From Candidatus Omnitrophota bacterium (GTDB lineage: Bacteria; Omnitrophota; Gorgyraeia; Gygaellales; Profunditerraquicolaceae), in contig CAWDSS010000010.1 of NCBI GenBank assembly GCA_963805065.1, positions 1,048,359 through 1,112,358 of the forward strand: a DNA stretch of 64,000 nucleotides, written 5' to 3'. Below the pieces are notes generated by a model that saw only the letters and a list, made by a program, of their open reading frames with translations, searched no databases and was not told the DNA's origin. Position numbers and translations under genes: made by a program. Positions 6,661 to 58,923 of the stretch are shown piece after piece (position 1 is the stretch's first letter; the number at the start of each line of letters is the position of its first letter).

Positions 6661-7760
6661 ACATTCTCTATATTACAAACCATCTTAATATCGGAGGCAT
6701 TACTTCCTACGTTTTGACTTTAGGCAGGGGTTTAAAGTCTAAGGGTCATAATCTTTATATTGCTTCTAGCGGCGGAGAGCTGAGCGCTAATTTTGCGGAT
6801 AGCGGCATAGTTTACATACCAATACCCATAAGGACAAAAAAGGAAATCAGCCCCGGTGTTTTTATCAGCGCGTTAAAACTTTTAAAACCAATAAGAAAAT
6901 ATAAAATAAATATCATACATTCAAACAGCCGGACAACTTCGGTCCTGGCTTGTTTGTTAGAAAATTTATCAGGGGTGCCTTTTATTTCTACTTGCCACGG
7001 GTTTTTTAAAAAAAGAATTTCTAGAAGAATTTTTCCCTGTTGGGGCAAAAGGGTTATTGCCGTAAGCGAATCGGTAAAAGAGCATTTAATTAATGACTTC
7101 AAAGTTGACGCGAAAATAATTGATGTAATACATAATGGTATAGACGTAGAAAAATTCAAAACGCAAAACGCAAAAGGCAAAAGTGAATTAAAAACAGAAT
7201 TGGGTTTATGGGAAGGGCCGGTAATCGGCATAGTGGCACGGTTGTCGGATGTAAAAGGACACGCATATCTTATTAAAGCAATGCGCGAAGTAATAAATGA
7301 AATACCCCAGGCACAATTGCTTATAGTAGGAGATGGCAAGATTAAACAGGAGTTGGTAAATTTAACTAAAGCACTTGGCATTGGGAAAAACGTAATTTTT
7401 GTCCCATCGGTAGATGACACAATAGGTGTATTATCGGTAATGGATATATTCGTAATGCCTTCGCTAAAAGAAGGTTTGGGACTTTCGCTTATGGAAGCCA
7501 TGGCATATGGCTTGGCAGTAATCGGTTCCGATGTCGGCGGCATAAAGACGCTTATACAAAATAAAGAGAATGGTTTGCTGGTAAACCCGAAAGATACGAA
7601 GGCGTTAGCAAGAGAAATACTGGACCTGATAAGAGATCCGCAAGGAAGAGAAAAGCTAGGAGAGAATGCCAAAATCTTTATCAGCCGTAATTTTTCCCAG
7701 GAAAAAATGACCGGGGAAACCGAAGCGGTTTACTTAAAGTGCATAAAAAATGAACAATAA
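6657..7760 (+). CDS. GT4 glycosyltransferase
   Basis: Start moved to ATG 6657 (ATGA overlap with the upstream stop). MNILYITNHLNIGGITSYV and EGLGLSLMEAMAYGLAVIGSDVGG motifs. Contains an AAAANNN heptamer array. Confidence 0.8.
   Translation: MNILYITNHLNIGGITSYVLTLGRGLKSKGHNLYIASSGGELSANFADSGIVYIPIPIRTKKEISPGVFISALKLLKPIRKYKINIIHSNSRTTSVLACLLENLSGVPFISTCHGFFKKRISRRIFPCWGKRVIAVSESVKEHLINDFKVDAKIIDVIHNGIDVEKFKTQNAKGKSELKTELGLWEGPVIGIVARLSDVKGHAYLIKAMREVINEIPQAQLLIVGDGKIKQELVNLTKALGIGKNVIFVPSVDDTIGVLSVMDIFVMPSLKEGLGLSLMEAMAYGLAVIGSDVGGIKTLIQNKENGLLVNPKDTKALAREILDLIRDPQGREKLGENAKIFISRNFSQEKMTGETEAVYLKCIKNEQ
7151..7185 (+). repeat. Heptamer array AAAATTC-AAAACGC-AAAACGC-AAAAGGC-AAAAGTG inside the GT4 gene
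   Basis: Read directly. Encodes KFKTQNAKGKSE in the inter-domain linker region. Confidence 0.8.
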
Positions 7761-8772: not shown

Positions 8773-10780
8773 AAAAATACTTTTTATAACCTTAAGCAAT
8801 ATCGGAGATGCAATTCTTACGCTGCCGGTTTTGGATTATTTAAAGAAAAGCTTTGCCGGCTCCCAGATTACCGTGATGACGGGACTGCGTGCGAAGGAAA
8901 TTTTTGAAAATGATCCTCTCGTAAAAAATTTGCTTGTTTACGATAAACATGCGAGGCTCCGTGAAAAAATCAAATTATTCCGGCAATTAAAACAAAAGAA
9001 TTTTGATTTAATTGTAGATTTACGTAATAGCTTTTTGGGAAGATTGCTTAGTTTTGGGCGCAGGGGAGTTCTTAGGAGCGCTTCTTTAGTAAAATCCAGG
9101 CATATGAAGGATATACATATGTCTAAAGTCGCCACAAAAATACCTCATCTAGCCGGTAACTCTTTACATGTTACGCCCCAGGATGAAGATTATGTCACCC
9201 GTCTCCTTGAGGAAAACAATATTTCCCAGAAAGATAATTTCGCGGTTATTTCTCCGGGTGCCAGGAGCAATATAAAGAGATGGCCTGCGGAAAAATTTAT
9301 GGAATTAATTTACGGTATTACTCAAACATTTAAATTAAAGGTAGTCTTGGTGGGAGATAAGGATGATGTGCCAATTACCGGCTATATTACAGAGCGCTCT
9401 AAATATGCTGTTACGGATTTAGCAGGAAAGACCAGCATCCTTCAGTTGGCTGCTTTGTTAAAAAGGGCAAAGGCCTTAATTTGTAATGACAGCGCTAGTA
9501 TGCATTTAGCCAGTTACCTTAATATACCAGTGGTGGCATTATTCGGGCCTACAGATGAAACAAAATACGGGCCGTGGTCCAAAACTTCAGTAACCGTAAA
9601 AAAAGAAATCTCCTGCAGGCCTTGCAAAAAAGCGCAGTGTAAATTCAATACCTTAGAATGCATGCATTTGATAAAAGTCGAAGACGTAATGAGGGCTCTA
9701 AATAATGTTTTAGCCCAGAATCCAGAACCCAGAGCCCGGAACCTGGAGAATTTTAAGCGTATACTTATCGCCCGCACAGATAGAATCGGCGATGTCCTTT
9801 TGTCAACGCCCGTAATTAAAGCCCTAAGGGAAAATTACCCCAATGCATATATTGCCATGATGGTTAGCCCCTATGCAAAGGATATAGTAGAAGCTAATCC
9901 CTACCTTGACCAGGTTATAATTTATGACAAGGATACTAAACACAAGAGTTGGGCTAGGTCAATAAAGTTTTCTCAGAGGCTCAAAAATAAAAGGTTTGAA
10001 TTGGCTATTATCCTGCATCCTACAAACCGCGTGCACCTGATAACATTTCTTGCAGGCATACGCAGGAGAATAGGCTTTGACAGGAAACTGGGGATTTTGC
10101 TGACCGACAGGATTAAGCATACCAAGCAGATGGGGCTTAAACATGAATTAGAGTATACCCTGGATTTAATCAGGCATTTAGGTATAGAGCCGGAAAATAA
10201 AAATCTGTTTATACCCATAAGGCAAGAATCAGAAGATTGGGTAGATGAATTATTTAAACAGGAGAGGATTAAAAAAGAGGATTTGTTATTGGCGATTAAC
10301 CCTGGAGCAAGCTGTCCCTCAAAAATCTGGCCCAATGAAAGGTTCGCCGAGGTTGCCGACAGGCTAATTGAAAAGTACGGGTTTAAGGTTTTGGTTGTGT
10401 CCGGGCCAAAAGACACTAGCTTAGCAGCAAGCCTGATTAAACATATGCGCCATAGCGCCCTGGATTTATCCGGCAAAACTTCATTAAGCCAGTTGGCAAG
10501 CTTGTTAAAAAGAAGCAATTTGTTTATATCCAATGATTCGGGTCCCGTGCACATTGCAACTGCCGTGGGAGTGCCGGTAATCGCAATATTCGGCAGGAAT
10601 CAGACGGGTTTAAGCCCTCGTCGTTGGGGGCCGGTTGGCAGAAAAGACAAAATCCTTCATAAACAGGTAGGTTGTATTAACTGCCTGGCGCACAACTGTA
10701 AAAATGGGTTTGCCTGCCTTAAGGCAATAACCGTGGAGGATGTTTACGAAGCAGCTGACCAGATAATGCAGTGTGCTTAA
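8762..10780 (+). CDS. Tandem GT9-GT9 fusion (two heptosyltransferase-like domains in one ORF)
   Basis: Two full GT9 units. Unit 1: ILFITLSNIGDAILTLPVL ... CNDSASMHLASY. Unit 2: ILIARTDRIGDVLLSTPVI ... SNDSGPVHIATA. Confidence 0.75.
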   Translation: MQVKKILFITLSNIGDAILTLPVLDYLKKSFAGSQITVMTGLRAKEIFENDPLVKNLLVYDKHARLREKIKLFRQLKQKNFDLIVDLRNSFLGRLLSFGRRGVLRSASLVKSRHMKDIHMSKVATKIPHLAGNSLHVTPQDEDYVTRLLEENNISQKDNFAVISPGARSNIKRWPAEKFMELIYGITQTFKLKVVLVGDKDDVPITGYITERSKYAVTDLAGKTSILQLAALLKRAKALICNDSASMHLASYLNIPVVALFGPTDETKYGPWSKTSVTVKKEISCRPCKKAQCKFNTLECMHLIKVEDVMRALNNVLAQNPEPRARNLENFKRILIARTDRIGDVLLSTPVIKALRENYPNAYIAMMVSPYAKDIVEANPYLDQVIIYDKDTKHKSWARSIKFSQRLKNKRFELAIILHPTNRVHLITFLAGIRRRIGFDRKLGILLTDRIKHTKQMGLKHELEYTLDLIRHLGIEPENKNLFIPIRQESEDWVDELFKQERIKKEDLLLAINPGASCPSKIWPNERFAEVADRLIEKYGFKVLVVSGPKDTSLAASLIKHMRHSALDLSGKTSLSQLASLLKRSNLFISNDSGPVHIATAVGVPVIAIFGRNQTGLSPRRWGPVGRKDKILHKQVGCINCLAHNCKNGFACLKAITVEDVYEAADQIMQCA

Positions 10781-21157: not shown

Positions 21158-22744
21158 ATGATTAAAATTTTAGTCAGTGATCAACTATCGGAAGAAGGGC
21201 TAAAGATATTGAAGGAAGTAAAAGAGTTTCAGGTGGACGTTTTGACGGAATTGAAACCCGAGGCATTAAAAGAAATAATTAAAGATTATGATGCGCTTCT
21301 TGTAAGGAGCGCCACCAAAGTAACCAAAGACATAATCAACGCCGCAGATAAATTAAAGGTCATTGGCCGCGCAGGCGTAGGTCTGGATAATGTTGACTTG
21401 GAGGCAGCTACGCAAAAAGGCATTATTGTAATGAATACTCCGGCGGGCAACACAATTTCTACCGCAGAGCATACCTTTAGCATGATTTTAGCGCTTTCCA
21501 GAAACATTGCCCAGGCTAATGCTTCCACGAAAAAAGGAGAATGGAAACGCTCAAAATTCATGGGAGTGGAGCTGTTTGAGAAGACGCTGGGGATTGTCGG
21601 ATTCGGAAGAATCGGCTCGGAAGTGGCAAAGCGCGCTAATTCATTCGGTATGAAGGTATTGGCGTTTGACCCCTTTTTGTCTAAAAAAATTGCTGAAGGT
21701 ATTGGTGTGGAAGTGGTGGAATTAAAAGATTTGCTCCAGCGCTCAGACTATATAACCGTGCATACGCCTCTTACAGAAGAAACAAAACACATGATATCAA
21801 CGAAAGAATTCGTATTAATGAAAAAAGGCGCCAGGATTATTAACTGTGCAAGAGGCGGCATAGTTGACGAAGCAGCCTTGGTGGAAGCTATCAAAGAAGG
21901 CAAAGTCGCAGGCGCTGCAATTGATGTCTTTGAAAAGGAGCCGGTAGATCCAAACAGTGAATTATTGAAATTGGAGAATGTGGTTACTACTCCGCACTTA
22001 GGGGCATCGACCGAAGAAGCGCAGGTAAATGTTGCGATTGAAGTGGCAGAGATTACCCGCGATGCGCTTTTGGGTAAAGGCATACGCAATGCTGCAAATT
22101 ATCCCTGCATAGAAGCAGAGGCCTGTAAATTCCTAGATCCCTACATTAACTTGGCGCAAAATTTAGGCTCATTTTCCAGCCAGTTGGTAGAGGGTCGATT
22201 CCAGGAATTAAATATAAGTTATAGCGGAGATATCGTGAAATACGATTTAGGTCCGCTCACTATGTCATTGGTTAAGGGAGTGCTTTCACCAATCTTAAAA
22301 GAAACGGTGAATTTCGTTAATGCAATTTCTTTAGCCCGCGAAAGAGGCATAAAGATAAGCGAAGCAAAATCAACCAACGAAGAGGAATTCGTAAATCTTA
22401 TCCAATTACAAATAAAAACCGACCAGGAAACCAGGGTAATTTCAGGCACGCTTTCTTCCAACAAGCAGCCGCGTATAGTAAAAATAGACAATTATTATGT
22501 TGAGCTTTCTCCCGTAGGAGAAATGATTTTTATACAGAATTGGGATAAGCCGGGTATTATCGGTGCTTTGGGTACACTTTTAGGCAAGCACGATATCAAT
22601 ATTGCTGCTATGACCTTTGGCCGCGATAAGCCGGGCGGAAGGGCTATAAGCGTATTAAACGTGGATAGTGTTATTTCAGCGGATATTTTGGATAAAATAA
22701 GAAAAACAGAGAATGTATTAGGAGCTAAGGTGGTAAAACTATGA
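21158..22744 (+). CDS. serA: D-3-phosphoglycerate dehydrogenase (with C-terminal ACT domain)
   Basis: GIVGFGRIGSEVA NAD motif and the ARGGIVDE/TPHLGAST catalytic region. About 528 aa, long form. Confidence 0.9.
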   Translation: MIKILVSDQLSEEGLKILKEVKEFQVDVLTELKPEALKEIIKDYDALLVRSATKVTKDIINAADKLKVIGRAGVGLDNVDLEAATQKGIIVMNTPAGNTISTAEHTFSMILALSRNIAQANASTKKGEWKRSKFMGVELFEKTLGIVGFGRIGSEVAKRANSFGMKVLAFDPFLSKKIAEGIGVEVVELKDLLQRSDYITVHTPLTEETKHMISTKEFVLMKKGARIINCARGGIVDEAALVEAIKEGKVAGAAIDVFEKEPVDPNSELLKLENVVTTPHLGASTEEAQVNVAIEVAEITRDALLGKGIRNAANYPCIEAEACKFLDPYINLAQNLGSFSSQLVEGRFQELNISYSGDIVKYDLGPLTMSLVKGVLSPILKETVNFVNAISLARERGIKISEAKSTNEEEFVNLIQLQIKTDQETRVISGTLSSNKQPRIVKIDNYYVELSPVGEMIFIQNWDKPGIIGALGTLLGKHDINIAAMTFGRDKPGGRAISVLNVDSVISADILDKIRKTENVLGAKVVKL

Positions 22745-24510
22745 ATAGAAAAGTAAAAAGTAAAAAGCCAAAAGTAAAAAGTTTTGTTATTTTGATTTCA
22801 TTTGTCATTTGTACTTTGTGTTTTGTCATTGGCGTAGCAAATGCTAAGGAAATAGCAATCATCTACTCCGGACAGACCCACGCCATGATTTATCCCTGCA
22901 GTTGTCCTTTTGACCCCGAAGGCGGAGTTGCACGCAGGGCAACCGTGGTTAAACAGATACGAAAAGAATATCCCGATAACCTGCTTTTAGATTCCGGAGA
23001 TTTCTTTGCTGGAGGACTGATGGATGAATACACGCAAAATACCCAGCTTGACATCCAGCGTTCACTGGTAAATCTTAGGGCAATGGAGTTGATGAAATAT
23101 GACGCCGCAGCAATAGGTGACGACGAATTTAATTTCGGCAGCAAAATTTTGCGGGAGAATATTGCCAAGACGAAATTAACCTTTTTATCCTGCAATTTAA
23201 AATCCGACAAAGTATCTTCCTCTATGATTAAAGAAGTCTCTGGGGTAAAAATCGGCATTATCGCAGTAACTACGGTTTTGGCAAAACAAAAATCCGACGA
23301 CCTCGAATTTAATGATCCTAAAAGTGCAGTTTACACGGCAGTAGAAAATCTGCATAAGCAAAATGTAAATATTATTATAGTCTTAAGCCATTTGGCAGAA
23401 AACGAAAGCCTGAATTTGATTAATGATGTAGGGGGAATAGATATTTTAATCGAAGGCCATAGCGCGGCAAATAATAAGGAACCATCTACTAAGATAGGCA
23501 ATACCTTAGTGTTAAGGCCCTCTTGGGAGGGTAAGAGCCTGCAGGCCTTAATTCTTTCGGTTGAAGGCGATAAAATAAAGACATACAAACTTAGAGAGAG
23601 TAAATTATCGAATGCGGTTGCCGATGACCCGCAAATTATTTCTATATTACCCAAATGTTTTTCTGACAATAATTGTAAAAAAGAAGGGTTTGTGGGTTTA
23701 TGTAAAGACCCCGGAGATTTAAAATCCCGGTGTATTTTTAACAAAGCCAATCAGGTGAAGTTATTAATTGTTACGCCTAAAGATTGCCTTGTTTGCGAGA
23801 CAGCACCTATCTCGGATTTCTTAAAGAGGCAATTTCCCGGCTTAAGCATTTCTTACATGTATTATCCTGATAAACGCGTAAACTCACTTATAAAGGATTT
23901 TAACGTCACGGGACTACCGGCTTATTTTCTGGGAAAAGAAGTAGAAATGGAAGGAAATTTTAATGCCCTGAAAGGAAACTTAACGCTAAAAGGGCAATAT
24001 TATATGGTTGCGCCTTATTTTAGCGGGTTCTCTTATTTTTTAAACAGGCAGAAACAAAAAGGAAAATTGGACTTATTTTTAAGCTTGTTTGATAAAGCTA
24101 CGCCACAGCTTTTGACAGTTATAAAGGAATTCAATCCTCAAATACATTTTCTGGCAATTGAGGAATCAGGTAAGTTCGATGCAGCTTCGGGTAGAAGAGA
24201 AGTTGAGGAAGATATGCGTGCAGTATGTGTGCAACAATACTACCCAAAGCATTTCTGGGATTATATCAGCTGCAGGTCAAACAATATCGATAGTTCATGG
24301 TGGGAGGATTGCGCGCAAGGCATTGATTTAAGTAAAATTTTTACATGCGCCAGGGGAAACGAAGGATATTCTTTGTTGAAGGCAAATACCGCAATCACCA
24401 AAGAAGCCCACATCATGATGGGTCCGGCTTATTTACTGGATAACCTTGAAATATTCAGCTCTAGGGGTGCTCCTTCTAAGGATGAACTTAAGAAAATAAT
24501 AAAGAGGTAA
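22741..24510 (+). CDS. Exported 5'-nucleotidase/metallophosphoesterase-like protein with degenerate metal motifs; Cys-rich C-terminal half
   Basis: DSGDFFAG, IGDDEFNFG (in place of GNHEFD), VLSHLA and ILIEGHS align to calcineurin-like phosphoesterase motifs. The signal peptide is encoded by heptamer repeats. Confidence 0.45.
   Translation: MNRKVKSKKPKVKSFVILISFVICTLCFVIGVANAKEIAIIYSGQTHAMIYPCSCPFDPEGGVARRATVVKQIRKEYPDNLLLDSGDFFAGGLMDEYTQNTQLDIQRSLVNLRAMELMKYDAAAIGDDEFNFGSKILRENIAKTKLTFLSCNLKSDKVSSSMIKEVSGVKIGIIAVTTVLAKQKSDDLEFNDPKSAVYTAVENLHKQNVNIIIVLSHLAENESLNLINDVGGIDILIEGHSAANNKEPSTKIGNTLVLRPSWEGKSLQALILSVEGDKIKTYKLRESKLSNAVADDPQIISILPKCFSDNNCKKEGFVGLCKDPGDLKSRCIFNKANQVKLLIVTPKDCLVCETAPISDFLKRQFPGLSISYMYYPDKRVNSLIKDFNVTGLPAYFLGKEVEMEGNFNALKGNLTLKGQYYMVAPYFSGFSYFLNRQKQKGKLDLFLSLFDKATPQLLTVIKEFNPQIHFLAIEESGKFDAASGRREVEEDMRAVCVQQYYPKHFWDYISCRSNNIDSSWWEDCAQGIDLSKIFTCARGNEGYSLLKANTAITKEAHIMMGPAYLLDNLEIFSSRGAPSKDELKKIIKR
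22747..22830 (+). repeat. 12-heptamer block (5 A-rich xAAAAAG-type, then 7 T-rich TTTGNNN-type) encoding the signal peptide
   Basis: AGAAAAG TAAAAAG TAAAAAG CCAAAAG TAAAAAG | TTTTGTT ATTTTGA TTTCATT TGTCATT TGTACTT TGTGTTT TGTCATT. 84 nt = 28 codons (RKVKSKKPKVKSFVILISFVICTLCFVI). Confidence 0.85.
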
Positions 24511-25974: not shown

Positions 25975-25976
25975 TT

Positions 25977-27387
<1,411 letters not shown>

Positions 27388-35236: not shown

Positions 35237-36303
35237 AAATTATAAGGCGAAAAAGCTTGATAGTAAAGATAGGTGATGTCAAAATAGGAGGTTGTAATCC
35301 GGTTGCCATACAATCTATGGCTAAGCATAAGACCTCTGATATTGAAAAAACAGTTACACAGTTAAATTGCCTGAAAAAATTGGGCTGTGAGATTGCCAGG
35401 GTTGCTATAAAAGATACTAATGATGCCAGGGCGATAAAACAGATTAAAAATAAAGTAAAGCTTCCGATAGTTGCCGATATCCATTTTGACTGGCATCTTG
35501 CCATAGAAGCAATTGAAAGCGGGGTAGATAAAATCAGGCTAAACCCTGGGAATATCTACAAGAAAGAAGAACTAAAGCAAATAGTCAGTGCTTTAAAATC
35601 GGCTAAAATACCATTAAGAGTAGGTTTAAATTCCGGATCGCTAAAATGCGTAAACTCTAAACATTTAAGTGTACCGGATAAACTTGTGGCATCTGCTTTA
35701 AATTATATAAGGATAATTGAAAAAATGAAATACCACGATATAGTGGTTTCACTTAAAGCTTCTAGTGTGCTGGATACCGTAGAGGCATATCGAAAAATGT
35801 CTAAGCTATGCGAGTTTCCCCTGCATTTGGGAGTAACGGCTACAGGTGCGCCGAATCAGGGAACAATAAAATCCAGCATTGCCATAGGCGCTTTATTAAT
35901 GGAAGGAATCGGGGACACGATAAGAATATCGCTTACAGAAGAACCCGGGCAGGAAGTTGCTGCAGCCAAGGCCATTTTAGAATCTTTGAATTTAAGGCAT
36001 TTCGGGCCTGAAATCATCAGTTGCCCGACGTGCGGAAGATGCGAAGTGGATTTAGTTAAGATAGTCAAAGATTTGGATAAGAAGCTATCAGTCGTCAGTC
36101 GTCAGTCGTCAGTCAAACCCTTAAAAGTTGCTGTTATGGGTTGTGTTGTGAACGGGCCCGGTGAAGCACGAGAGGCAGATGTAGGTGTTGCCTTTGGGAA
36201 ATCCGAAGGATTATTATTCAGGAAGGGAAGAGCAATAAAAAAAATAGCTTACCATGATATAACAAATTCCTTATTGAAGGAAATGGAGCAATTGAATGCT
36301 TAA
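35233..36303 (+). CDS. ispG: 4-hydroxy-3-methylbut-2-en-1-yl diphosphate synthase
   Basis: VQSM, ADIHFD, RINPGN, CPTCGR and GCVVNGPGEA motifs. Contains a TCAGTCG heptamer array. Confidence 0.95.
   Translation: MKIIRRKSLIVKIGDVKIGGCNPVAIQSMAKHKTSDIEKTVTQLNCLKKLGCEIARVAIKDTNDARAIKQIKNKVKLPIVADIHFDWHLAIEAIESGVDKIRLNPGNIYKKEELKQIVSALKSAKIPLRVGLNSGSLKCVNSKHLSVPDKLVASALNYIRIIEKMKYHDIVVSLKASSVLDTVEAYRKMSKLCEFPLHLGVTATGAPNQGTIKSSIAIGALLMEGIGDTIRISLTEEPGQEVAAAKAILESLNLRHFGPEIISCPTCGRCEVDLVKIVKDLDKKLSVVSRQSSVKPLKVAVMGCVVNGPGEAREADVGVAFGKSEGLLFRKGRAIKKIAYHDITNSLLKEMEQLNA
36088..36115 (+). repeat. Heptamer array (TCAGTCG x3 plus TCAGTCA) inside ispG
   Basis: Read directly. Encodes SVVSRQSSV between the CPTCGR motif and GCVVNGPGEA, where this protein is about 7 residues longer than E. 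coli IspG as I recall it. Confidence 0.85.
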
Positions 36304-47311: not shown

Positions 47312-48445
47312 ATGAAAATAAAACAAATTATAGGGATGATTGTGTTGGTTCTGGGTTCTGGGTTCTGGGTTCTGGGTTCTTTTGCCCTGCAGCAAAGCAC
47401 AGTAAGGGTACTTATTATAGATAAAACGCGATCTCTAAGCCTTAAACTCTTAGGGGATTATGAGATAATCAATTTAAAAGACAGCCAGATTTTATCCAGC
47501 GGCAGGGACCTTAAAACAACAGTAATGGGTTATTATAAAGGTATATTACTTGCCGGAAATAATTTCTCTGCGCAAAAACTTTTGCTTAAAGTGCAAAGCC
47601 AGGACGCAGTCATTATTAACGGCCGCTCATTCAGAGGAGATATCCAGGTGTCTCGAGACGGAGAACTCCTTTCAGTTATAAATTGTATCGATTTAGAAGA
47701 TTATATCAAGGGGATACTTTACCACGAAGCTTCGCATTATTGGCCGATGGAGGCTTTAAAGGCGCAGGCAATAGTTTGTCGTACCTACGCTATTTACGAG
47801 ATGCAGGAGAATAGAGATAAGGATTTTGATGTAACCAGCGATATATATTCCCAAGTTTACGGAGGAAAGACCTCCGAGCGTTTTCGCACCAATGAAGCAG
47901 TTGATGCTACTAGGGATGAGGTTTTAACTTATCAGGGAAAAGTTTTTCCCGCATATTTTCATGCTACTTGTGCAGGTCACACAGAAGATGCATCTCGTCT
48001 TTGGAACATTAATATAGCGCCGCTTAAAGGAGTACTGTGTGACTATTGCAAAGACTCTCCCCATTTTAACTGGCATTTGGTTTTAGACCGGGGGGAGTTG
48101 AGGCAAAGGCTGGTTAATTCAGGTTACTCGATGGGCATGATAAAAAATATCGAGATTTTAGGAAAGGATAATTCTGGAAGGATTACAGATCTAAAAATAT
48201 CCACCATAACCAAGGAAGTAAAAATATCTGCAAAGGATTTTCGTAACATCATCGGGCCCAATGAAATCAAAAGCACAAATTTTGTAGTTAGTTTCGCCGG
48301 TGAAGACTTTGTATTTGAAGGTTTTGGCTGGGGACATGGCGTAGGCTTATGCCAGTGGGGAGCTTATTTTATGGCTACGCAAGGTAAAACCGCAGAACAA
48401 ATCCTAAAGTATTATTATCCTCAAAGCAATGTTAAAACTTTCTGA
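47312..48445 (+). CDS. SpoIID/LytB-domain protein (peptidoglycan remodelling)
   Basis: DYIKGILYHEASHYWPMEALKAQAIVCRTYA, HATCAGHTE and GHGVGLCQWGA motifs. The signal peptide contains a GGTTCTG array. Confidence 0.8.
   Translation: MKIKQIIGMIVLVLGSGFWVLGSFALQQSTVRVLIIDKTRSLSLKLLGDYEIINLKDSQILSSGRDLKTTVMGYYKGILLAGNNFSAQKLLLKVQSQDAVIINGRSFRGDIQVSRDGELLSVINCIDLEDYIKGILYHEASHYWPMEALKAQAIVCRTYAIYEMQENRDKDFDVTSDIYSQVYGGKTSERFRTNEAVDATRDEVLTYQGKVFPAYFHATCAGHTEDASRLWNINIAPLKGVLCDYCKDSPHFNWHLVLDRGELRQRLVNSGYSMGMIKNIEILGKDNSGRITDLKISTITKEVKISAKDFRNIIGPNEIKSTNFVVSFAGEDFVFEGFGWGHGVGLCQWGAYFMATQGKTAEQILKYYYPQSNVKTF
47347..47381 (+). repeat. Heptamer array (GGTTCTG x4 plus GGTTCTT) in the SpoIID-like signal peptide
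   Basis: Read directly. Encodes [11 protein letters not shown] within the N-terminal hydrophobic segment. Confidence 0.9.
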
Positions 48446-49422: not shown

Positions 49423-50667
<1,245 letters not shown>

Positions 50668-50673
50668 AATTTT

Positions 50674-50736
50674 GCTTTCAGTCATCAGTCGTCAGCTTAC
50701 AGCTGATAGCTGATAGCTGAAAGCTGAAAGCTGAAC
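50674..50736 (+). repeat. Nine-heptamer palindromic element filling the tgt-trmD gap up to the ATG
   Basis: GCTTTCA GTCATCA GTCGTCA GCTTACA GCTGATA GCTGATA GCTGAAA GCTGAAA GCTGAAC, then ATG. 50674-50697 pairs imperfectly (about 19 of 24) with 50701-50724. Confidence 0.9.
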
Positions 50737-51423
50737 ATGCGCATTGATATTATCACTATTTTCCCCAAGATGTTTGAGCCTGTATTAAATGAATCTATAA
50801 TCAAGCGGGCACAGCACAAAGGAAAGGTAAAGATTTGTCTGCACGACTTAAGAGATTTTAGCGCTGATAAGCATAGAAAAGTGGATGACCGGCCATTCGG
50901 CGGAGGTTCAGGGATGGTAATGAAGCCGGAGCCGATATTCAAGGCAGTAGAGTATATAAAAGTTAAAAGTCAAAAGCCAAAAGTCAAAACTAAGGTTGTT
51001 CTGTTATGTCCCCAAGGTAAAAAATTAACTCAAAAAACTTGTAAGAAATTAGCAAAATACAAACATTTGATTTTAATTTGCGGCCATTACGAAGGAGTTG
51101 ATGAGAGAGTAAGGCACTATTTAGCAGATGAAGAAATTTCTATCGGCGATTATGTTTTGACTGGCGGAGAACTGCCGGCCATGGTCTTGGTAGATGCTAT
51201 TGTCAGGCTTATCCCGGGAGTTTTAGGCGATAAAAATTCCTTGAATTTTGAGTCATTTGAGAGTAATCTATTAGAATATCCGCACTATACAAGACCCGCG
51301 AAATTCAGGGACATGTCAGTGCCTCGGGAACTCCTTTCCGGAGACCATAAGCAAATTGAAAATTGGAGAAAACAACAAGCCATAAACAGGACCAAACTTA
51401 GAAGACCTGATCTTCTAAAATGA
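50737..51423 (+). CDS. trmD: tRNA (guanine37-N1)-methyltransferase
   Basis: [36 protein letters not shown] and [12 protein letters not shown] motifs. Confidence 0.95.
50958..50992 (+). repeat. Heptamer array AAAAGTT-AAAAGTC-AAAAGCC-AAAAGTC-AAAACTA inside trmD
   Basis: Read directly. Encodes [11 protein letters not shown] in a variable loop. Near-identical to 58885-58923 and to the A-arm at 22747-22781. Confidence 0.85.
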
Positions 51424-52780: not shown

Positions 52781-54464
52781 TATAGAAATTGTCCGGAAGG
52801 CAAAAATAGAGCCAATCGAGAATATTGCCAAGAAACTCTCCGTTGATAAAAAATACCTTGTACCTTACGGTAAATATATCGCAAAAATTGATTTAAGCAT
52901 CCTGGGTAATTTAAAAAACAAGAAACAGGGTAAGTACATTTTGGTTACCGCGATTACGCCTACGCCTCTGGGAGAGGGTAAAACAGTTACCACCATCGGC
53001 CTTTCCATGGCGTTAAATAAATTAGGTAAACTTGCTTCTACCTGTATTCGCCAGCCATCTTTAGGCCCGGTTTTCGGCATAAAAGGAGGGGCTGCAGGCG
53101 GCGGATATTCCCAGGTTTTACCGATGGAGGATTTTAACCTGCATTTTACCGGAGATGTGCATGCAGTAGGGACAGCGCATAATCTGGCTGCGGCATTCCT
53201 GGACAATGCATTATTTAAGGGGAATAAGTTAAAGATTAATCCTGATAAAATATATTGGCGTAGGGCCGTTGATGTCAGCGACCGGTGTTTAAGAAATATA
53301 AAAATCGGATTAGGCTCAAAAGACGACGGTGTTCCCAGGGAAAGTGGATTTGATATTACCGTAGCCTCTGAAATAATGGCTATATTGGCATTGGCTGCGG
53401 ATTTAAAGGATTTACGTAAACGTATCGCTAGCATTGTTATGGCTGATGACATCGCAGGTAATCCCATAACCGCGCAAGATTTAAAAGTTGCAGGCGCTAT
53501 GACTGTTTTGCTTCGCGATGCCATAAAGCCCAATCTTATACAGACAATTGAAAATACGCCTTGTTTTGTGCATGCCGGGCCTTTTGCAAATATCGCCCAC
53601 GGAAATAATTCCATATTGGCTGACAGAATTGCCTTGAATTTTAGTGATTATGTAGTAACGGAGGCAGGTTTCGGAGCTGACTGCGGGGCAGAGAAATTTT
53701 TTGATATCAAATGCCGCGCAAGCGGTTTGACTCCCGACGCAGCAGTGATTGTTTGCTCTATAAGAGCGCTTAAAGCGCATAGCGGAAAATTTAAAATTGT
53801 GGCGGGAATGCCCCTGGATACATGTTTAGCAAATGAAGACCTAAAGGCCATAGAAGAAGGCCTGTGTAATTTAGAGAAACAAATTGATAATGTCAGGCAG
53901 TTTGGTATTCCGGTAGTAGTGGCTATAAACAGGTTTTCCTGCGACACGGATAAAGAAATAGATTTTGTGAAGAAAAAGGCAAAAGAATTCGGCGCGTATG
54001 ACTGCTGCGTCAGTGGTGTATGGGCTCATGGCTCAAGTGGCGGCATTGATTTAGCTAAAGCCGTAATAAAGGCAGCAGAAGAAAAGAGTAATTTCAAATT
54101 CCTTTACCCGCAAGAGTTATCTATAAAGGATAAAATTAAAACTATCGCAACAAAAATTTACGGAGCCAAAGATATAGAATATACTCACCTGGCAGAAGAA
54201 AAGATTAAGATTTATACAGAACGCGGTTATCACAAGTTACCTATCTGCATGGCAAAGACGCATTTATCTTTATCGCATGATCCTAATTTAAAGGGCAGGC
54301 CTTACGGCTTTACTTTACCGATAAGAGATATCAGGGCCTCAATAGGAGCCGGGTTTTTATATCCCTTATGCGGAGAAATGAAAACTATGCCAGGATTACC
54401 CAGTCGCCCGGTAGGAGAAAATATCGATATCAATGATAAAGGGGAAATAGAAGGATTATCTTAG
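52770..54464 (+). CDS. fhs: Formate--tetrahydrofolate ligase
   Basis: VTAITPTPLGEGKTVTTIGL, GGAAGGGY and EAGFGADCGAEKF motifs. Start moved to ATG 52770. Confidence 0.95.
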   Translation: MLSDIEIVRKAKIEPIENIAKKLSVDKKYLVPYGKYIAKIDLSILGNLKNKKQGKYILVTAITPTPLGEGKTVTTIGLSMALNKLGKLASTCIRQPSLGPVFGIKGGAAGGGYSQVLPMEDFNLHFTGDVHAVGTAHNLAAAFLDNALFKGNKLKINPDKIYWRRAVDVSDRCLRNIKIGLGSKDDGVPRESGFDITVASEIMAILALAADLKDLRKRIASIVMADDIAGNPITAQDLKVAGAMTVLLRDAIKPNLIQTIENTPCFVHAGPFANIAHGNNSILADRIALNFSDYVVTEAGFGADCGAEKFFDIKCRASGLTPDAAVIVCSIRALKAHSGKFKIVAGMPLDTCLANEDLKAIEEGLCNLEKQIDNVRQFGIPVVVAINRFSCDTDKEIDFVKKKAKEFGAYDCCVSGVWAHGSSGGIDLAKAVIKAAEEKSNFKFLYPQELSIKDKIKTIATKIYGAKDIEYTHLAEEKIKIYTERGYHKLPICMAKTHLSLSHDPNLKGRPYGFTLPIRDIRASIGAGFLYPLCGEMKTMPGLPSRPVGENIDINDKGEIEGLS

Positions 54465-54467
54465 GAG

Positions 54468-54567
54468 CTTAAAACGCAAATCGCAAAAGGCAAAACTGGA
54501 ACCCAAAACTAAAAACGTTTTAAGTTTTACGTTGCAGTTTTGAGTTTTGACTTTTTCGTTTTGAGTC
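54468..54567 (+). repeat. AAAANNN heptamer hairpin element centred on AAAACGTTTT
   Basis: The arms meet at the palindrome 54512-54521. The right arm 54516-54558 is the reverse complement (42 of 43) of 56870-56912. Confidence 0.85.
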
Positions 54568-54580
54568 AGGAGTATAAGGA

Positions 54581-55141
54581 ATGTATAAAGACAAGTCGCT
54601 AAGACAGTATCTGGATGATTTAGCTGGGAAACTTCCTGCTCCCGGAGGCGGGTCTGCCGCAGCTTTAAATGCAAGCCTAGGCGCAGCTTTAATCAGTATG
54701 GTAGTAAATTTCACTCTGGGAAAACCTAAATACGCCAAGTTTGAAAATGAATTAAAAGCAATCCTGGATAAGTCAGAAAAATTAAGGAATGATTTTTTAA
54801 ATTTAGTGGATTTGGACGTCACAGCTTATCAAAGTAAGAACGCCAGAAATGCCCTGGATGTGCCTTTTATGGTTGCCCGTCTTTGTTTTGAGGCAATTAA
54901 ATTATGCCCGCCGTTAATTACCAAGGCAAACACAAACCTTGCTAGCGATGTCGCGGTAGCTGCGATTCTTTTGGAATCAGCGTTCACCAGCGCTTATTTT
55001 AACGTGGAAATAAACCTTAAATTCATTAATGATGCAAAGTTTTCCAAGAAAATCAGAAAGGAATTGGCGCAAAAGCAAAAATCAATTAAAAAGATAAGAA
55101 TTCAAACGGAGGATAAAATTGGCAAAATTATTAGAGGGTAA
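54581..55141 (+). CDS. Cyclodeaminase/cyclohydrolase family protein (FTCD C-terminal-like)
   Basis: LRQYLDDLAGKLPAPGGGSAAALNASLGAALISMV is typical of the formiminotransferase-cyclodeaminase C domain. Sits between fhs and folD. Confidence 0.8.
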   Translation: MYKDKSLRQYLDDLAGKLPAPGGGSAAALNASLGAALISMVVNFTLGKPKYAKFENELKAILDKSEKLRNDFLNLVDLDVTAYQSKNARNALDVPFMVARLCFEAIKLCPPLITKANTNLASDVAVAAILLESAFTSAYFNVEINLKFINDAKFSKKIRKELAQKQKSIKKIRIQTEDKIGKIIRG

Positions 55142-55961
55142 ACCTTTAGCTGATAAAATTAAAGAAGAGATAAAACAGCAGGTACAGGCCATGAATAAAA
55201 AGCCTGTATTGGCAAGTGTTCTGGTGGGAGAAAATGCAGGGGCTGAAGTCTATGCAAAATCCCAGAGAAAGAATGCCGAAGGCTTAGGTATAGAATATCA
55301 ATTAAATAAATTGCCCCAAGAGACTAGCGAAACTAAGCTGATAGAGTTTATAAAAGAATTAAATCAGAATAAATCCATAAATGGTATCATCATCCAGATG
55401 CCGTTACCTGCACACATTGACTATAAGAAAATCAGCCAGTATATTCTTCCGGAAAAGGATGTGGAAGGAATGCATCCTGCCAACATCGGAAAGATTGTAT
55501 TCGGAAAGGCAAAGATTTTACCTTGCACCCCGGCAGCAGTCATGGAATTATTGAATTCTATTGGCATAGATTTATATGGTAAAGAAGTAGTTGTGGTTGG
55601 CCATAGTGAAATAGTAGGAAAGCCCTTAGCGCTTTTGTTATTGGAAAAGTTTGCTACTGTAACGGTTTGCCATATCGGAACATCCAAGGCGGGAAAATTA
55701 GAAGAGCATGTTAAAAAAGCAGAAGTTTTAATCGTAGCAGTCGGTAAAGCCGGATTAATTAAGGGCGATTTAATTAAACAAGGCGCAATTGTTATTGATG
55801 TGGGTATAAATAGGGTTGCGGATAAAATTGTAGGAGATGTTGAATTTGAAGCTGCGCAAAGGAGAGCTTCCTATATCACTCCTGTTCCCGGCGGAGTCGG
55901 GCCATTGACAGTAACCATGTTGATGCGCAATGTAGTTGAAACAGCCAAGTCACAACAATAA
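55119..55961 (+). CDS. folD: Bifunctional 5,10-methylene-THF dehydrogenase / 5,10-methenyl-THF cyclohydrolase
   Basis: GIIIQMPLP, PCTPAAV, VVGHSEIVGKP and TPVPGGVGPLT motifs. TTG start after GGAGGA. Confidence 0.95.
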   Translation: MAKLLEGKPLADKIKEEIKQQVQAMNKKPVLASVLVGENAGAEVYAKSQRKNAEGLGIEYQLNKLPQETSETKLIEFIKELNQNKSINGIIIQMPLPAHIDYKKISQYILPEKDVEGMHPANIGKIVFGKAKILPCTPAAVMELLNSIGIDLYGKEVVVVGHSEIVGKPLALLLLEKFATVTVCHIGTSKAGKLEEHVKKAEVLIVAVGKAGLIKGDLIKQGAIVIDVGINRVADKIVGDVEFEAAQRRASYITPVPGGVGPLTVTMLMRNVVETAKSQQ

Positions 55962-55989
55962 TAATATTTAATTACTTGAGGAGATTGAA

Positions 55990-56859
55990 TTGACTTTTAA
56001 AGAAAAATTACAGGCTGGGAAGTTTTTAGTGACATCCGAGATTGGACCGCCTAAAGGCATTGAAACCGCAATGCTTTTGGAAGATGCTGAGCTTATCCGC
56101 ACGCGCGTGGATGCGATTAATGTTACGGATTTACAGAGTTCAGTCATGCGTTTAGGCTCTTTGGTAGTTTGCTCGCTTCTAAAACAAAAAGGCTTTGAGC
56201 CGATATTTCAGGTAACCTGCCGCGACAGAAACCGCCTGGCTTTACAATCGGATATTTTATCCGCCGCTGCTTTAGGCATTGAGAATCTTTTGATTTTAAC
56301 CGGAGACCATACTACCTCAGGAGACCATCCGGAAGCAAAGCCTGTATTTGACCTGGATTCAGTGCAATTATTGCAGGTAGTAGGTAAGCTCCAGCAAGGC
56401 CTTGATATGAAAGATAATAAACTTGAGGGAAGAGCGCCGAAGTTTTGCGTGGGCGCTGTAGTAAACCCTGGGGCTGACCCCATAGAGCCGCAAATTATGA
56501 AGATGGAAAAGAAAATTGAAGCAGGTGCTGAGTTTTTTCAGACACAGGCTATTTATGACATTAAAATCTTCGAAAATTTCTTAAGCAAAATTAAACATCT
56601 TAAAACTACCATACTTGGCGGGATAGTTTTATTGAAATCCGCAGGCATGGCAAAATATATGAATAAAAATGTCGCAGGCGTATCTGTCCCCGACAGTTTC
56701 ATTAAGGAAATGGAAGAAACAAAAGATAAGTCAGCGAAATCCATAGAAATCGCTGCCAGATTAATTAAAGAATTAAAACCCATGTGTCAGGGTATACATA
56801 TTATGCCTATCGGCTGGGACAAGAAAGTTCCGTTAGTATTAGACGCGGCAAGGTTGTAA
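55990..56859 (+). CDS. metF: Methylenetetrahydrofolate reductase
   Basis: FLVTSEIGPPKG, INVTD, TCRDRNR and LILTGDH motifs. TTG start after GAGGAG. Confidence 0.85.
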   Translation: MTFKEKLQAGKFLVTSEIGPPKGIETAMLLEDAELIRTRVDAINVTDLQSSVMRLGSLVVCSLLKQKGFEPIFQVTCRDRNRLALQSDILSAAALGIENLLILTGDHTTSGDHPEAKPVFDLDSVQLLQVVGKLQQGLDMKDNKLEGRAPKFCVGAVVNPGADPIEPQIMKMEKKIEAGAEFFQTQAIYDIKIFENFLSKIKHLKTTILGGIVLLKSAGMAKYMNKNVAGVSVPDSFIKEMEETKDKSAKSIEIAARLIKELKPMCQGIHIMPIGWDKKVPLVLDAARL

Positions 56860-56863
56860 GAGC

Positions 56864-56964
56864 GCAAAACGTAAAAGTCAAAACTCAAAACTGCAACGTA
56901 AAACTTAAAACGTTTTGAATTTTGCGTTTAAGTTTTGCGTTTTGAGATTTGCCTTTTGAGTTTG
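56864..56964 (+). repeat. AAAANNN heptamer hairpin element centred on AAAACGTTTT
   Basis: Centre at 56907-56916. The left arm 56870-56912 matches the reverse complement of 54516-54558. Confidence 0.85.
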
Positions 56965-56979
56965 TTCAGAGGAGGTTAT

Positions 56980-58884
56980 ATGAGTGATCTCACGAATAAA
57001 TCAATAGACATAGCTACGCAAGAAGTCCTCAAGAAGGCTCAGGAAGAGAACATTAAGACTACTTGGGATAGATTGGAATTGCAGGAGCCGCAATGCGGGT
57101 TTGGGCAATTGGGCGTATGCTGCACGGTTTGCAGCATGGGCCCCTGCAGGATTGATCCTTTTGGTGAGGGTGCACAAGTCGGAGTATGCGGAGCAAATGC
57201 CGATACAATTGCCGCAAGAAACCTGGCTAGGAAGATCGCCGTAGGCGCTTCAGCGCATTCTGACCACGGAAGAGACGTTGCGCATGCTTTGTCGCATGTC
57301 GCAGAAGGCCATACGCACGATTATGAAATAATAGATGTAGAAAAACTTAAAAATGTGGCACAGGAATATGGAATTGATGTTTCTAAACCCAAAGAGCAGA
57401 TTGCCAAAGAACTCGGGAAAAAACTTAGCGAGGAATTCGGCAAGCAGGAAGGTGAATTGACATTTTGTAAACGAGCACCTAAGAAACGCCGCGATATCTG
57501 GAAAAAGTTAGGAATAACACCCAGAGGCATTGACCGGGAAGTCGTAGAATTACTGCATACTACCACTATGGGAGTTGACAATGATTACAAGAACATTATT
57601 AATACTGGTATGCGCTGTGCTTTATCAGATGGCTGGGGTGGTTCTATGATTGCCACCGACGCACAGGACATAATTCTAGGTAGCCCCGTGCCCGTAAGAG
57701 GAAAAGTTAATTTAGGCGTATTAAAAGAAAATTATGTAAATATTGTAGTGCATGGCCATGAACCGGTTCTATCTGAAATGGCAGTTAAGGCATCGCAGGA
57801 CCCGGAACTGCTGAAACTCGCGAAAGCTAAGGGAGCAGAAGGCATAAATTTAGCAGGTATATGCTGTACTGCCAATGAAGTTTTGATGCGTCATGGAATT
57901 CCTGTGGCAGGAAATTTCCTGCAGCAGGAATTGGCGATTATTACCGGAGCAGTTGAGGTAATGATGGTGGATGTACAGTGTATTATGCCGGCCTTGCATG
58001 AAATCGCAAGTTGTTTTCACACAAAACTGATTACTACCAGTTCCAAAGCGCGTTTTCCCGGAGTAGCGCACATTGAATTTGATACTAAAGATGCTTATAA
58101 AACGGCAAAAGAAATAATTAAGACCGCTGTAGAGAATTTCCCTAACAGGAATAAGGAAAGAGTGAATATTCCCAAACAGGAAATGGATTTGGTTGCCGGG
58201 TTTACCAAGGAAGTTGTTTTTCAGATTTTAGGCGGTAGATACCGTTCTACTTACAGGCCTTTGAATGAAGCAATTATTTCCGGAAGGCTGCGTGGTTTAG
58301 CAGGCGTGGTCGGTTGTAATAATCCTAAGCAGACGCATGATTATTATCATACCACTTTAGTAAAAGAGCTGATTAAAAATGACGTCCTGGTTTTACAGAC
58401 CGGTTGTTCCGCTATTGCCTGCGCAAAACAGGGTTTACTACTGCCTGAAGCAGCAAAGCAATACGCGGGAAAAGGCTTGCAGGAGATTTGCGAAGCAGTG
58501 GGAATCCCTCCGGTCTTACACCTTGGCTCTTGCGTGGATAATTCGCGCATTCTTACCGCAGCATCTCATATAATTGAAGAGGGTGGTCTCGGCCAGGATT
58601 TATCTGATATTCCTGCAGCTGGCTGTGCGCCTGAATGGATGTCTGAAAAAGCAATCACCATAGGATTTTACTTTGTTGCCTCCGGAGTCTATACCGTATT
58701 TGGCGCCAGCCCCTTTGCCACCCTGGGCAGCAAAAACCTTACGGAATATTTAACCCGTGATTTAGAATCCATTGTAGGCGGAAGGTTTGAATTTTGCGAT
58801 GATCCTCTGCAGATGGCAACGCTGATGATTGCACATATCGATAAAAAGCGTAAAGACCTGAATTTAAAGCCCGCAATGTACTAA
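56980..58884 (+). CDS. cooS: Ni-Fe carbon monoxide dehydrogenase catalytic subunit
   Basis: N-terminal Cys clusters (CGFGQLGVCCTVCSMGPCR), HGHEP, the GICCTANE region and CVDNSR. Start moved to ATG 56980 after GAGGAGG. Confidence 0.9.
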   Translation: MSDLTNKSIDIATQEVLKKAQEENIKTTWDRLELQEPQCGFGQLGVCCTVCSMGPCRIDPFGEGAQVGVCGANADTIAARNLARKIAVGASAHSDHGRDVAHALSHVAEGHTHDYEIIDVEKLKNVAQEYGIDVSKPKEQIAKELGKKLSEEFGKQEGELTFCKRAPKKRRDIWKKLGITPRGIDREVVELLHTTTMGVDNDYKNIINTGMRCALSDGWGGSMIATDAQDIILGSPVPVRGKVNLGVLKENYVNIVVHGHEPVLSEMAVKASQDPELLKLAKAKGAEGINLAGICCTANEVLMRHGIPVAGNFLQQELAIITGAVEVMMVDVQCIMPALHEIASCFHTKLITTSSKARFPGVAHIEFDTKDAYKTAKEIIKTAVENFPNRNKERVNIPKQEMDLVAGFTKEVVFQILGGRYRSTYRPLNEAIISGRLRGLAGVVGCNNPKQTHDYYHTTLVKELIKNDVLVLQTGCSAIACAKQGLLLPEAAKQYAGKGLQEICEAVGIPPVLHLGSCVDNSRILTAASHIIEEGGLGQDLSDIPAAGCAPEWMSEKAITIGFYFVASGVYTVFGASPFATLGSKNLTEYLTRDLESIVGGRFEFCDDPLQMATLMIAHIDKKRKDLNLKPAMY

Positions 58885-58923
58885 GAAAAGTTAAAAGTAA
58901 AAAGCCAAAAGGAAAAACTAAAT
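58885..58923 (+). repeat. Single-arm AAAANNN heptamer array
   Basis: GAAAAGT TAAAAGT AAAAAGC CAAAAGG AAAAACT AAA directly after the cooS stop. Closely matches 22747-22781 and 50958-50992. Confidence 0.8.

Follow-up and report, generated by a model that had tools for sequence, protein, structure and literature searches.

The subject here is a 64,000-nt (64-kb) stretch of DNA from a Candidatus Omnitrophota bacterium (GCA_963805065.1, contig CAWDSS010000010.1, positions 1,048,359-1,112,358 of the forward strand), in which the genes ftcd, folD, and metF are bracketed by 2 heptamer hairpins that we call E1 (54468-54563) and E2 (56865-56960). The question that this locus raises is what these hairpins are, and why one arm of E1 recurs almost unchanged, in opposite orientation, in E2. 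We call the whole stretch the window, and all coordinates without a locus prefix are positions in it. On balance we think it likely that E1 and E2 are "solo-stem" copies, lacking an open reading frame (ORF), of a selfish element resembling the intervening sequences (IVSs) of 23S rRNA, whose full-length form carries a gene of Pfam family PF05635, and that the shared arm is a recent local copy of one arm only.

Anatomy of the two hairpins

E1 and E2 are each an imperfect palindrome of about 96 nt composed of AAAACNN/NNGTTTT heptamers. A repeat search puts the self-complementarity of each at 79-80%, and it also aligns the whole of E1 with the whole of E2, at 90% in inverted orientation over 96 nt and at 78% in direct orientation. 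Both are centered on AAAACGTTTT, which has 3 sites in the window where 0.27 are expected. In the helix, 5-bp AAAAC:GUUUU blocks alternate with 2-nt spacers, most of which are mismatched, and the pair table has 38-39 Watson-Crick pairs out of 53. Tandem Repeats Finder reports period-7 repeats in both, with unit matches of 65-80%, that is, degenerate ones.

The fit into the operon is tight. E1 fills the gap from the fhs stop codon (TAG, 54462-54464) to the ribosome-binding site (RBS) of the FTCD_C-type cyclohydrolase gene (ATG 54581), and E2 fills the gap from the metF stop codon (TAA, 56857-56859) to the RBS of cooS/acsA (ATG 56980). By Pfam, the bracketed block is part of a co-directional fhs...acsB Wood-Ljungdahl cluster. 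The features are as follows, with bits referring to the position weight matrix (PWM) described below.

54468-54516, + strand: E1 5' arm, A-rich, with seven degenerate AAAACNN heptamers and a 6-nt odd unit, beginning 3 nt past the fhs stop codon; 52.4 bits.
54517-54563, + strand: E1 3' arm (the shared arm), T-rich NNGTTTT heptamers with the odd unit GTTGCA, just ahead of the RBS AGGAG and the ftcd start (ATG 54581); 56.2 bits.
56865-56911, + strand: E2 5' arm, A-rich, the reverse complement of the E1 3' arm, beginning 5 nt past the metF stop codon; 57.4 bits.
56912-56960, + strand: E2 3' arm, T-rich, resembling the E1 5' arm only at the level of family background, just ahead of the RBS GAGGAGG and the cooS start (ATG 56980); 55.1 bits.
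54581-56859, + strand: the bracketed block, with the ftcd-like cyclohydrolase at 54581-55141, folD at 55119-55961, and metF at 55990-56859 (Pfam).

In the independent Logan assembly ERR10755942 of the same organism, the short-read contigs (L001, L002) end inside the arm shared by E1 and E2, as expected of a real repeat longer than 31 nt. Elements of this type break up assemblies and may be under-represented in metagenome-assembled genomes (MAGs).

The shared arm

The original prediction counted 42 matches in 43 positions between 54516-54558 and the reverse complement of 56870-56912. That count is exact, and the tract itself is real but longer than 43 nt, containing a perfect run of 44 nt in which 54512-54555 equals the reverse complement of 56873-56916. 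Over the whole arm, the E1 3' side matches the reverse complement of the E2 5' side at 46/47 positions (51/52 by BLAST), and with the center included the shared tract is 54512-54563 in E1 and 56865-56916 in E2, which takes in everything from the palindrome center outward to the end of the arm. The other arms had been called only loosely alike, and they are: 40/49 (82%), which is within the family background, with all of the differences at spacer positions.

That background is an arm-to-arm identity of 72 +/- 7% over 924 comparisons, with a 95th percentile of 83%, and the probability of at least 46 matches in 47 at an identity of 0.72 is 3.8e-6. With the E1 3' arm as BLAST query, identity is 98% to the E2 5' arm and 77-87% to all other arms, whatever their genome; the non-shared arms of E1 and E2 are as close to arms from other phyla as they are to each other. 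Nor is the 43-mer a family consensus found everywhere, as judged over the 64-kb window and about 1 Mb of related loci. Another Omnitrophota MAG has four copies with both arms shared at 85-98%, all in one orientation, so that copying of whole elements is the norm there and the sharing of one arm is unusual.

Recent copying or gene conversion, which the original prediction had offered as one option, is therefore the right kind of explanation for a 46/47 match set against a 72 +/- 7% background. The near-identity would reflect a recent non-reciprocal copy of one arm without selection for a signal, most likely by one-arm gene conversion; a start at the palindrome center, for example in the repair of a break at the hairpin tip, would fit the extent of the shared tract. 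The direction was probably from E1 to E2, with E1 the likely donor because it is ancestral (see the orthologous junctions below).

A family of palindromes in several phyla

To find arms of the same family we used the skeleton pattern TTTTNNNTTTTNNGTTNNNGTTTTNNNTTTT. It has six matches in the window against 0 expected, and these fall on the two arms of each of E1, E2, and a third copy, E3. The window also has a lone array that scores weakly.

25978-26108, no strand assigned: E3, third copy, loop of 30 nt, in the spacer that separates an HMGL-like (homocitrate-synthase-like) gene from purA; 54.4 and 58.7 bits.
58886-58922, + strand: lone A-rich heptamer array (AAAAGNN) in the cooS-Fer4 spacer, possibly a half-element; a weak 10.9 bits.

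Scanned across one genome per species, the pattern returns at least 119 loci, many of them poly-T noise, and at least 29 matches from four or more phyla have an upstream A-rich partner arm, which the pattern had not required. Hosts among the matches listed are Patescibacteria, Omnitrophota, Atribacterota, Planctomycetota, and a few unclassified MAGs. Their anatomy is common to all: several (S)TCAAAA units on the A-side, a 6-nt odd unit two units from the center with the form AAAAC-YRY-AAC / GTT-RYR-GTTTT, a loop of 0-83 nt, and a T-rich mirror-image arm. A 45-nt PWM built from these arms scores the arms of E1 and E2 at 52-57 bits, where the maximum in shuffled windows is 2.8 bits, and E1 and E2 are thus members of the family. 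Ordered by the PWM, the matches listed contain 34 pairs with the A-arm before the T-arm and 0 in reverse. At least 19 of the 24 hairpins among the matches listed sit snugly between two co-directional genes, of housekeeping type, which is weak evidence alone because these genomes are strongly co-directional. Among viral contigs, 120 matches to the pattern were listed, of which 8 are not poly-T and 0 are hairpins.

Some observations stand beside these. In other phyla, 10 lone arms lie inside ORFs, and each of the 10 is A-rich when read on the coding strand. Trichodesmium erythraeum (L033, 1059-2585) has a long array of GTTTTTA/GTTTTAG heptamer blocks with conserved spacers of about 30 nt (GGTAGTTTGAAAAAGTGTTAGGCGGCAGG), an architecture different from that of the family. 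The literature searched has no account of heptamer or palindromic repeats in Omnitrophota, of these hairpins, or of PF05635 elements located in operons.

Full-length copies carry a PF05635 gene

What ties the palindromes to a gene is a pair of loci in which the arms stand far apart. In L113 (Caldatribacteriota) and L020 (Omnitrophota), the A-arm and the T-arm are separated by 412 and 344 nt, and each pair encloses an ORF of 125 aa that matches PF05635, the "23S rRNA intervening-sequence protein" family, at E = 9e-22 and 4e-24. The 2 proteins are 77.6% identical across phyla, and over Omnitrophota, Planctomycetota, and Caldatribacteriota the identity is 77-86%. At E<=1e-20 there are 3550 such proteins, many of them 80-86% identical and labeled as "four helix bundle protein" of Omnitrophica or Planctomycetes. 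Four further full copies, retrieved by protein identity alone and not by their arms, have PWM arms exactly at the ORF ends with scores of 24-57 bits against the shuffle maximum of 2.8; they lie between POR alpha and beta subunit genes, after ribBA, between pyrB and pyrC, and between ligT and recA. These four and the L020 copy, which is between atpE and atpF, are all co-directional with the neighboring genes, and every full element lies between housekeeping genes that run the same way. With L088 (Portnoybacteria) as the seventh, a PF05635 ORF of 123-125 aa is bracketed by the same two arms in seven independent loci. Within the A-arm lie the start codon of the ORF and the codons for about its first ten residues (MQNQNLKFKTK), and the T-arm starts at the stop codon of the ORF (...KF*).

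Intermediates also exist. On one Caldatribacteriota contig, L113:7599-7776 is a deletion derivative, equal to the full copy L113:1670-2176 located 5.4 kb away minus 1724-2052, and what it retains is both arms (A-arm 44/54, T-arm 113/124) and the final 26 codons. Several ORF-less hairpins also have the start motif AAAATGCAAAAC, and remnants of the start with its ATG are left in L006, L036, L073, and E3; in E3 it is the 3' arm, read on the minus strand, that contains the ATG and keeps an ivp-start-like motif. Since there are ORF-bearing copies with the same arms and also an internal-deletion copy, E1 and E2 are best read as ORF-less solo stems. The full-length form is a gene for a PF05635 protein (four-helix-bundle, S23p/Avd-like) with an A-rich arm over its start codon and a T-rich arm from its stop codon. 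As we picture it, internal deletion would drop the gene and leave the two arms as an imperfect palindrome of about 100 nt; solo stems of this kind occupy spacers between co-directional genes and would be transcribed within the operon mRNA. The loop-free E1 and E2 would be the end point of a series running from full copy through partly deleted to ORF-less.

In the copy from the POR operon (L276, 2400-2500), the frame of the upstream host gene continues into the A-arm as far as a TAA that ends one base short of the PF05635 ATG, so that the insertion has replaced the C-terminal end and stop codon that the host gene originally had. At L105 (7526-7957), there is a distant PF05635 homolog (35-37% identity) whose arms are arrays of another heptamer, TAGGATT, and in a relative (L136, 5628-5759) an ORF-less hairpin with TAGGATT-type outer units follows cooS. 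From such sequences, heptamer stems may be general to PF05635 elements, with the unit varying by subfamily.

Orthologous junctions in relatives

In 24 related metagenome loci, with FTCD identity of 68-79%, the order fhs-ftcd-folD-(variable)-metF-cooS is kept, and gene order and orientation are fixed in 24/24. The hairpins are labile at these orthologous sites: at that level of identity the sequence of E1 and E2 is not conserved, and the junctions often bear other heptamer arrays. The fhs-ftcd spacer is 4-9 nt in many relatives, has heptamer hairpins of other units in L122 and L128, and has plain heptamer arrays in L143/145 and L144. The metF-cooS spacer is 15-22 nt in most.

The closest relative (L292, FTCD 85%) has an orthologous E1 at fhs-ftcd and is the only relative that keeps it. 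Its 5' arm is about 89% identical to that of E1, its 3' arm matches at 41/50, and it shares the rare odd unit GTTGCAG; it has a 25-nt loop, whereas E1 has none. E2 is in no relative examined, and its site is empty in most. Two contigs with metF 93% identical have metF-cooS gaps of 9 and 16 nt and no element, with the top metF matches, at 92-93%, being too conserved to single out a contig of the L292 lineage. An orthologous E1 in L292 together with short metF-cooS gaps elsewhere points to E1 being old and E2 younger. Judging from these sequences, E1 was in place before the source lineage split from its closest known relative, and E2 is probably confined to the source lineage.

The same junctions have arrays of other kinds. 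In L144 (5970-6001), the fhs-ftcd spacer consists of ATGAACY repeated four times, the ftcd start codon being part of the array, which has the look of in-situ heptamer amplification, and TAGGTNA arrays are in the metF-cooS spacer of two relatives, L132 and L144. L128 has another small palindrome, with a GGGACAGTCCC / GGGACTGTCCC core, at its folD-metF and metF-cooS junctions (3804-3849 and 4715-4828). It represents a separate repeat family that exploits these intercistronic niches as well.

RNA folding and tests for selected structure

Selection for pairing would be expected to show as covariation between arms and as more G-U than A-C on the transcribed strand. On the sense strand E1 and E2 fold at -33.5 and -37.4 kcal/mol, with z about -3.5 and -4.2, and on the antisense strand at -28.7 and -27.3. 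In 22 elements oriented by their flanking genes, G-U pairs number 58 and A-C mismatches 55 on the sense strand, and arms are 74.3% complementary to their own partner against 72.2 +/- 7% to partners from other genomes. With G-U equal to A-C and no excess of own-partner pairing, the better sense-strand fold of E1 and E2 does not generalize. One subfamily occurs in both orientations relative to transcription (L005 and L110 against L006 and L036). The idea in the original prediction of a functional strand-specific RNA or protein-binding motif finds no support in these counts and orientations. The conserved features are the heptamer skeleton and the odd unit, not the pairing of the spacers.

Rfam at a permissive E-value over 54300-57200 gives only sub-threshold noise from miRNA hairpins, and at the gathering score over 18 element-bearing loci it has no match over the hairpins and finds no rRNA. 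Nothing points to selection for RNA pairing, to a strand-specific motif, to a terminator, or to an inversion switch. Separately, a promoter with the A-arm as its -10/UP element was ruled out, as the palindrome would give two convergent promoters, without a -35; the attC and CRISPR readings were ruled out by anatomy.

Relation to known systems

The 23S rRNA IVSs with an S23p/PF05635 gene occur in Leptospira, Coxiella, and Brucella, at helix 9, 25, or 45. The IVSs of rRNA are selfish elements bounded by inverted repeats, some with an S23p ORF, and RNase III cuts them out without the ends being rejoined (PMC4990558). The likeness to the present elements lies in the PF05635 gene, in inverted repeats at both ends that pair into a long stem enclosing the ORF, in transcription within a host RNA, and in the selfish, horizontally transferred character (PMC4990558). 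The differences are that E1 and E2 lie at fhs|ftcd and metF|cooS in mRNA operons and not in rRNA helices, that the stems here are 45-55-nt degenerate heptamer arrays overlapping the ORF start and stop codons, and that ORF-less miniatures and lone half-stems are common. PF05635 stem elements between the protein-coding genes of operons most likely work like IVSs, if the analogy of gene and stem is a guide. By the same analogy we infer that the stems would fold in the mRNA and be cut by RNase III as rRNA IVS stems are, separating the fhs, ftcd-folD-metF, and cooS messages.

Avd is a nucleic-acid-binding partner of reverse transcriptase. PF05635 proteins resemble it, Avd being the accessory protein of diversity-generating retroelements (PMC10053308), but no reverse transcriptase, template repeat, or variable repeat is seen next to any element examined. 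Miniature inverted-repeat transposable elements are similar in being non-autonomous internal-deletion derivatives that keep both terminal inverted arms of a gene-bearing parent, whereas the parent gene here is no recognizable transposase and no target-site duplication is definable.

REP, BIME, and REPIN elements of proteobacteria share with ours that they are multi-copy palindromes of about 100 nt in intercistronic or extragenic spacers, co-transcribed, with hairpins able to affect segmental mRNA stability. They differ in that here there is no GTAG head and no arm co-evolution, the arms are heptamer arrays, and the parent has a PF05635 gene. The cyanobacterial STRR heptamer repeats include a hupS-hupL hairpin (PMC2670836), and Beggiatoaceae have TAACTGA heptamer repeats (PMC4679880); roles proposed for the 2 are in transcript stability or translational coupling (PMC2670836; PMC4679880). 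Ours are like them in the 7-nt periodicity, the intergenic position just upstream of start codons, and the potential for hairpins between cistrons. STRR and TAACTGA repeats are mostly direct arrays, of other units and in other lineages, whereas our elements are strict A-arm/T-arm palindromes that keep the odd unit fixed and are linked to a protein-coding parent; STRRs are near-identical direct copies of one unit in a cyanobacterial lineage, and ours are degenerate, palindromic, and in Omnitrophota. REP/BIME, STRR, and TAACTGA repeats are analogues in position or periodicity, not relatives.

Weighing the explanations

Several points weigh against reading E1 and E2 as solo stems with one recently copied arm. 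The 64-kb window contains no PF05635 gene, and similarity to full elements gives no confident start-side or stop-side type for the arms of E1 and E2. The asymmetry between the arms (46/47 against 40/49) is of moderate significance (Fisher p=0.016). RNase III cleavage of the local hairpins is uncertain because the stems are mismatched every 5 bp. There is also a general excess of heptamer arrays with unrelated units, and some arrays may arise in situ.

A more far-reaching version of the solo-stem reading, which we put forward tentatively and consider unlikely as a whole, is that PF05635 genes with heptamer-repeat stems are one and the same mobile element, spreading in the spacers of essential operons across phyla (Omnitrophota, Patescibacteria, Atribacterota, Planctomycetota), with half-stems also entering coding regions. 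RNase III would release its RNA from host transcripts, as with rRNA IVSs, and this RNA would possibly be copied back with the help of the Avd-like protein as cofactor, and E1 and E2 together would form a 96-bp stalk excising the ftcd-folD-metF message.

Such a stalk could also be the selected feature in itself. Under this explanation, which we rate as improbable, E1 and E2 pair at long range in the polycistronic mRNA, as in an rRNA stalk, an RNase III cut releases or co-regulates ftcd-folD-metF, and selection for complementarity maintains the shared arm. Energetics are attractive: the inner 52 bp are near-perfect within about 96 bp in all at 90%, and the duplex has -119.4 kcal/mol against -71.1 for two local hairpins. 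When the whole 2504-nt segment is folded, the minimum free energy structure adopts the long-range stem, pairing 90 positions of E1 with E2, and the E1 5' arm pairs with the E2 3' arm at -45.3 against -33.5 with its own partner. The stem would be an ideal RNase III substrate around the three genes. However, a duplex of this kind is possible for any two copies of a palindromic family, and the local hairpins form first in transcription while ribosomes translate the intervening 2.3 kb. It is a single instance without covariation, and the two-element arrangement is absent in relatives, where the E2 site is mostly empty and where L128 has two unrelated elements at both junctions.

Could the arrays instead have grown in place, by slippage biased to 7 nt as in STRRs, with no descent from PF05635 elements and the shared arm a matter of chance or convergence? 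We see only a small chance of this. In its favor, arrays of at least 4 copies occur only at period 7 (8 against 0 for the other periods of 4-12 in the window, and 13 in related Omnitrophota loci totaling 145 kb, where no other period has more than 1), and orthologous junctions carry arrays of unrelated units, one of them built from the start codon (L144). Heptanucleotide repeats are the commonest class of long simple sequence repeats in prokaryotes (PMC4679880). What slippage leaves unexplained is the fixed odd unit two units from the center, the strict A-then-T order of 34:0, the arms exactly on the ORF ends of PF05635 in seven loci, and the deletion derivative, and 46/47 against a background of 72% is no convergence.

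The original prediction had likened the pair to REP/BIME elements, and this holds as to their intercistronic position and co-transcription, while PF05635 IVS-like elements are the closer relative. Taken literally, as REPINs moved by a RAYT transposase and setting differential mRNA stability in the operon as barriers to 3'-exonucleases, the comparison is very improbable. E1 and E2 are indeed intergenic, palindromic, about 100 nt, multi-copy, and within operons, with the sense-strand folds and z-scores given above. But the GTAG-type head is absent, the arms are heptamer arrays and not REP units of 20-35 nt, the associated gene found is PF05635 and not a Y1 transposase, and the arms do not co-evolve, whereas REPIN arms do.

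Intrinsic terminators or attenuators, possibly bidirectional, that split the Wood-Ljungdahl cluster into transcription units have similarly little to recommend them. An A-rich arm followed by a U-rich one directly past a stop codon is superficially like an A-tract, hairpin, and U-tract, but the stems are AT-rich with mismatches and there is no G+C-rich stem with a U-run. A sigma-70 promoter and terminator scan finds no site and no consensus of either kind at E1 or E2, with counts equal to the shuffled expectation; the RBS of the next gene is within 3-10 nt, leaving no room for a promoter; and E1 and E2 are absent from most relatives with the same operon. An inversion switch, also raised in the original prediction, is scarcely credible even with near-perfect 52-bp inverted repeats directly flanking the 2.3-kb block, as flipping ftcd-folD-metF would set three core pathway genes antisense in their operon, the orientation is alike in 24/24 relatives, Pfam finds no adjacent recombinase gene, and the one independent assembly (ERR10755942) has normal junctions.

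Consequences for annotation and for IVS biology

The origin and mobility of rRNA IVSs and the role of S23p have been open questions for about 30 years, and here the same gene family turns up, with long repeat stems, in the mRNA operons of four or more phyla about which little is known. The copies range from full through partly deleted to gene-less, a series suited to working out how the element moves and what the stem does. The solo-stem reading would explain the conspicuous heptamer hairpins and arrays of these lineages, which break short-read assemblies and can be mistaken for regulatory RNAs, and it predicts RNase III-dependent segmentation of operon mRNA, here in the Wood-Ljungdahl cluster. 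For annotation, the warning is that such hairpins are neither terminators nor riboswitch-like signals.

Other heptamer arrays in the window

Period-7 arrays of at least 4 copies are located at 2476-2520, 7151-7187, 25975-26014, 36083-36117, 47342-47383, 50026-50060, 50692-50737, and 50956-50989, with units that are mutually unrelated (AGCTTTC, GGTTCTG, TCAGTCG, AGCTGAA, AAAAGNN). In-frame heptamer arrays occur within housekeeping genes of a single domain, in lpxK (2476-2520), ispG/gcpE (36083-36117), tgt (50026-50082), and trmD (50956-50989), as well as in the interdomain linker of a GT4 protein (7151-7187) and in a heptosyltransferase (9714-9743). The Pfam domain match continues on both sides of an in-gene array, for example in TrmD, which indicates that the 7-nt repeats are translated as short insertions. 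A heptamer palindrome of another unit (TCAGTCN / AGCTGAN, 50676-50743) fills the tgt-trmD spacer up to the trmD start codon. Finally, a hairpin of A-arm and T-arm heptamers at 22749-22830 is the 5' end of the ORF at 22741-24510, its A-rich arm encoding a Lys-rich N-terminus and its T-rich arm a hydrophobic stretch (MNRKVKSKKPKVKSFVILISFVICTLCFVIG...), so that the palindrome reads as a signal-peptide-like sequence.

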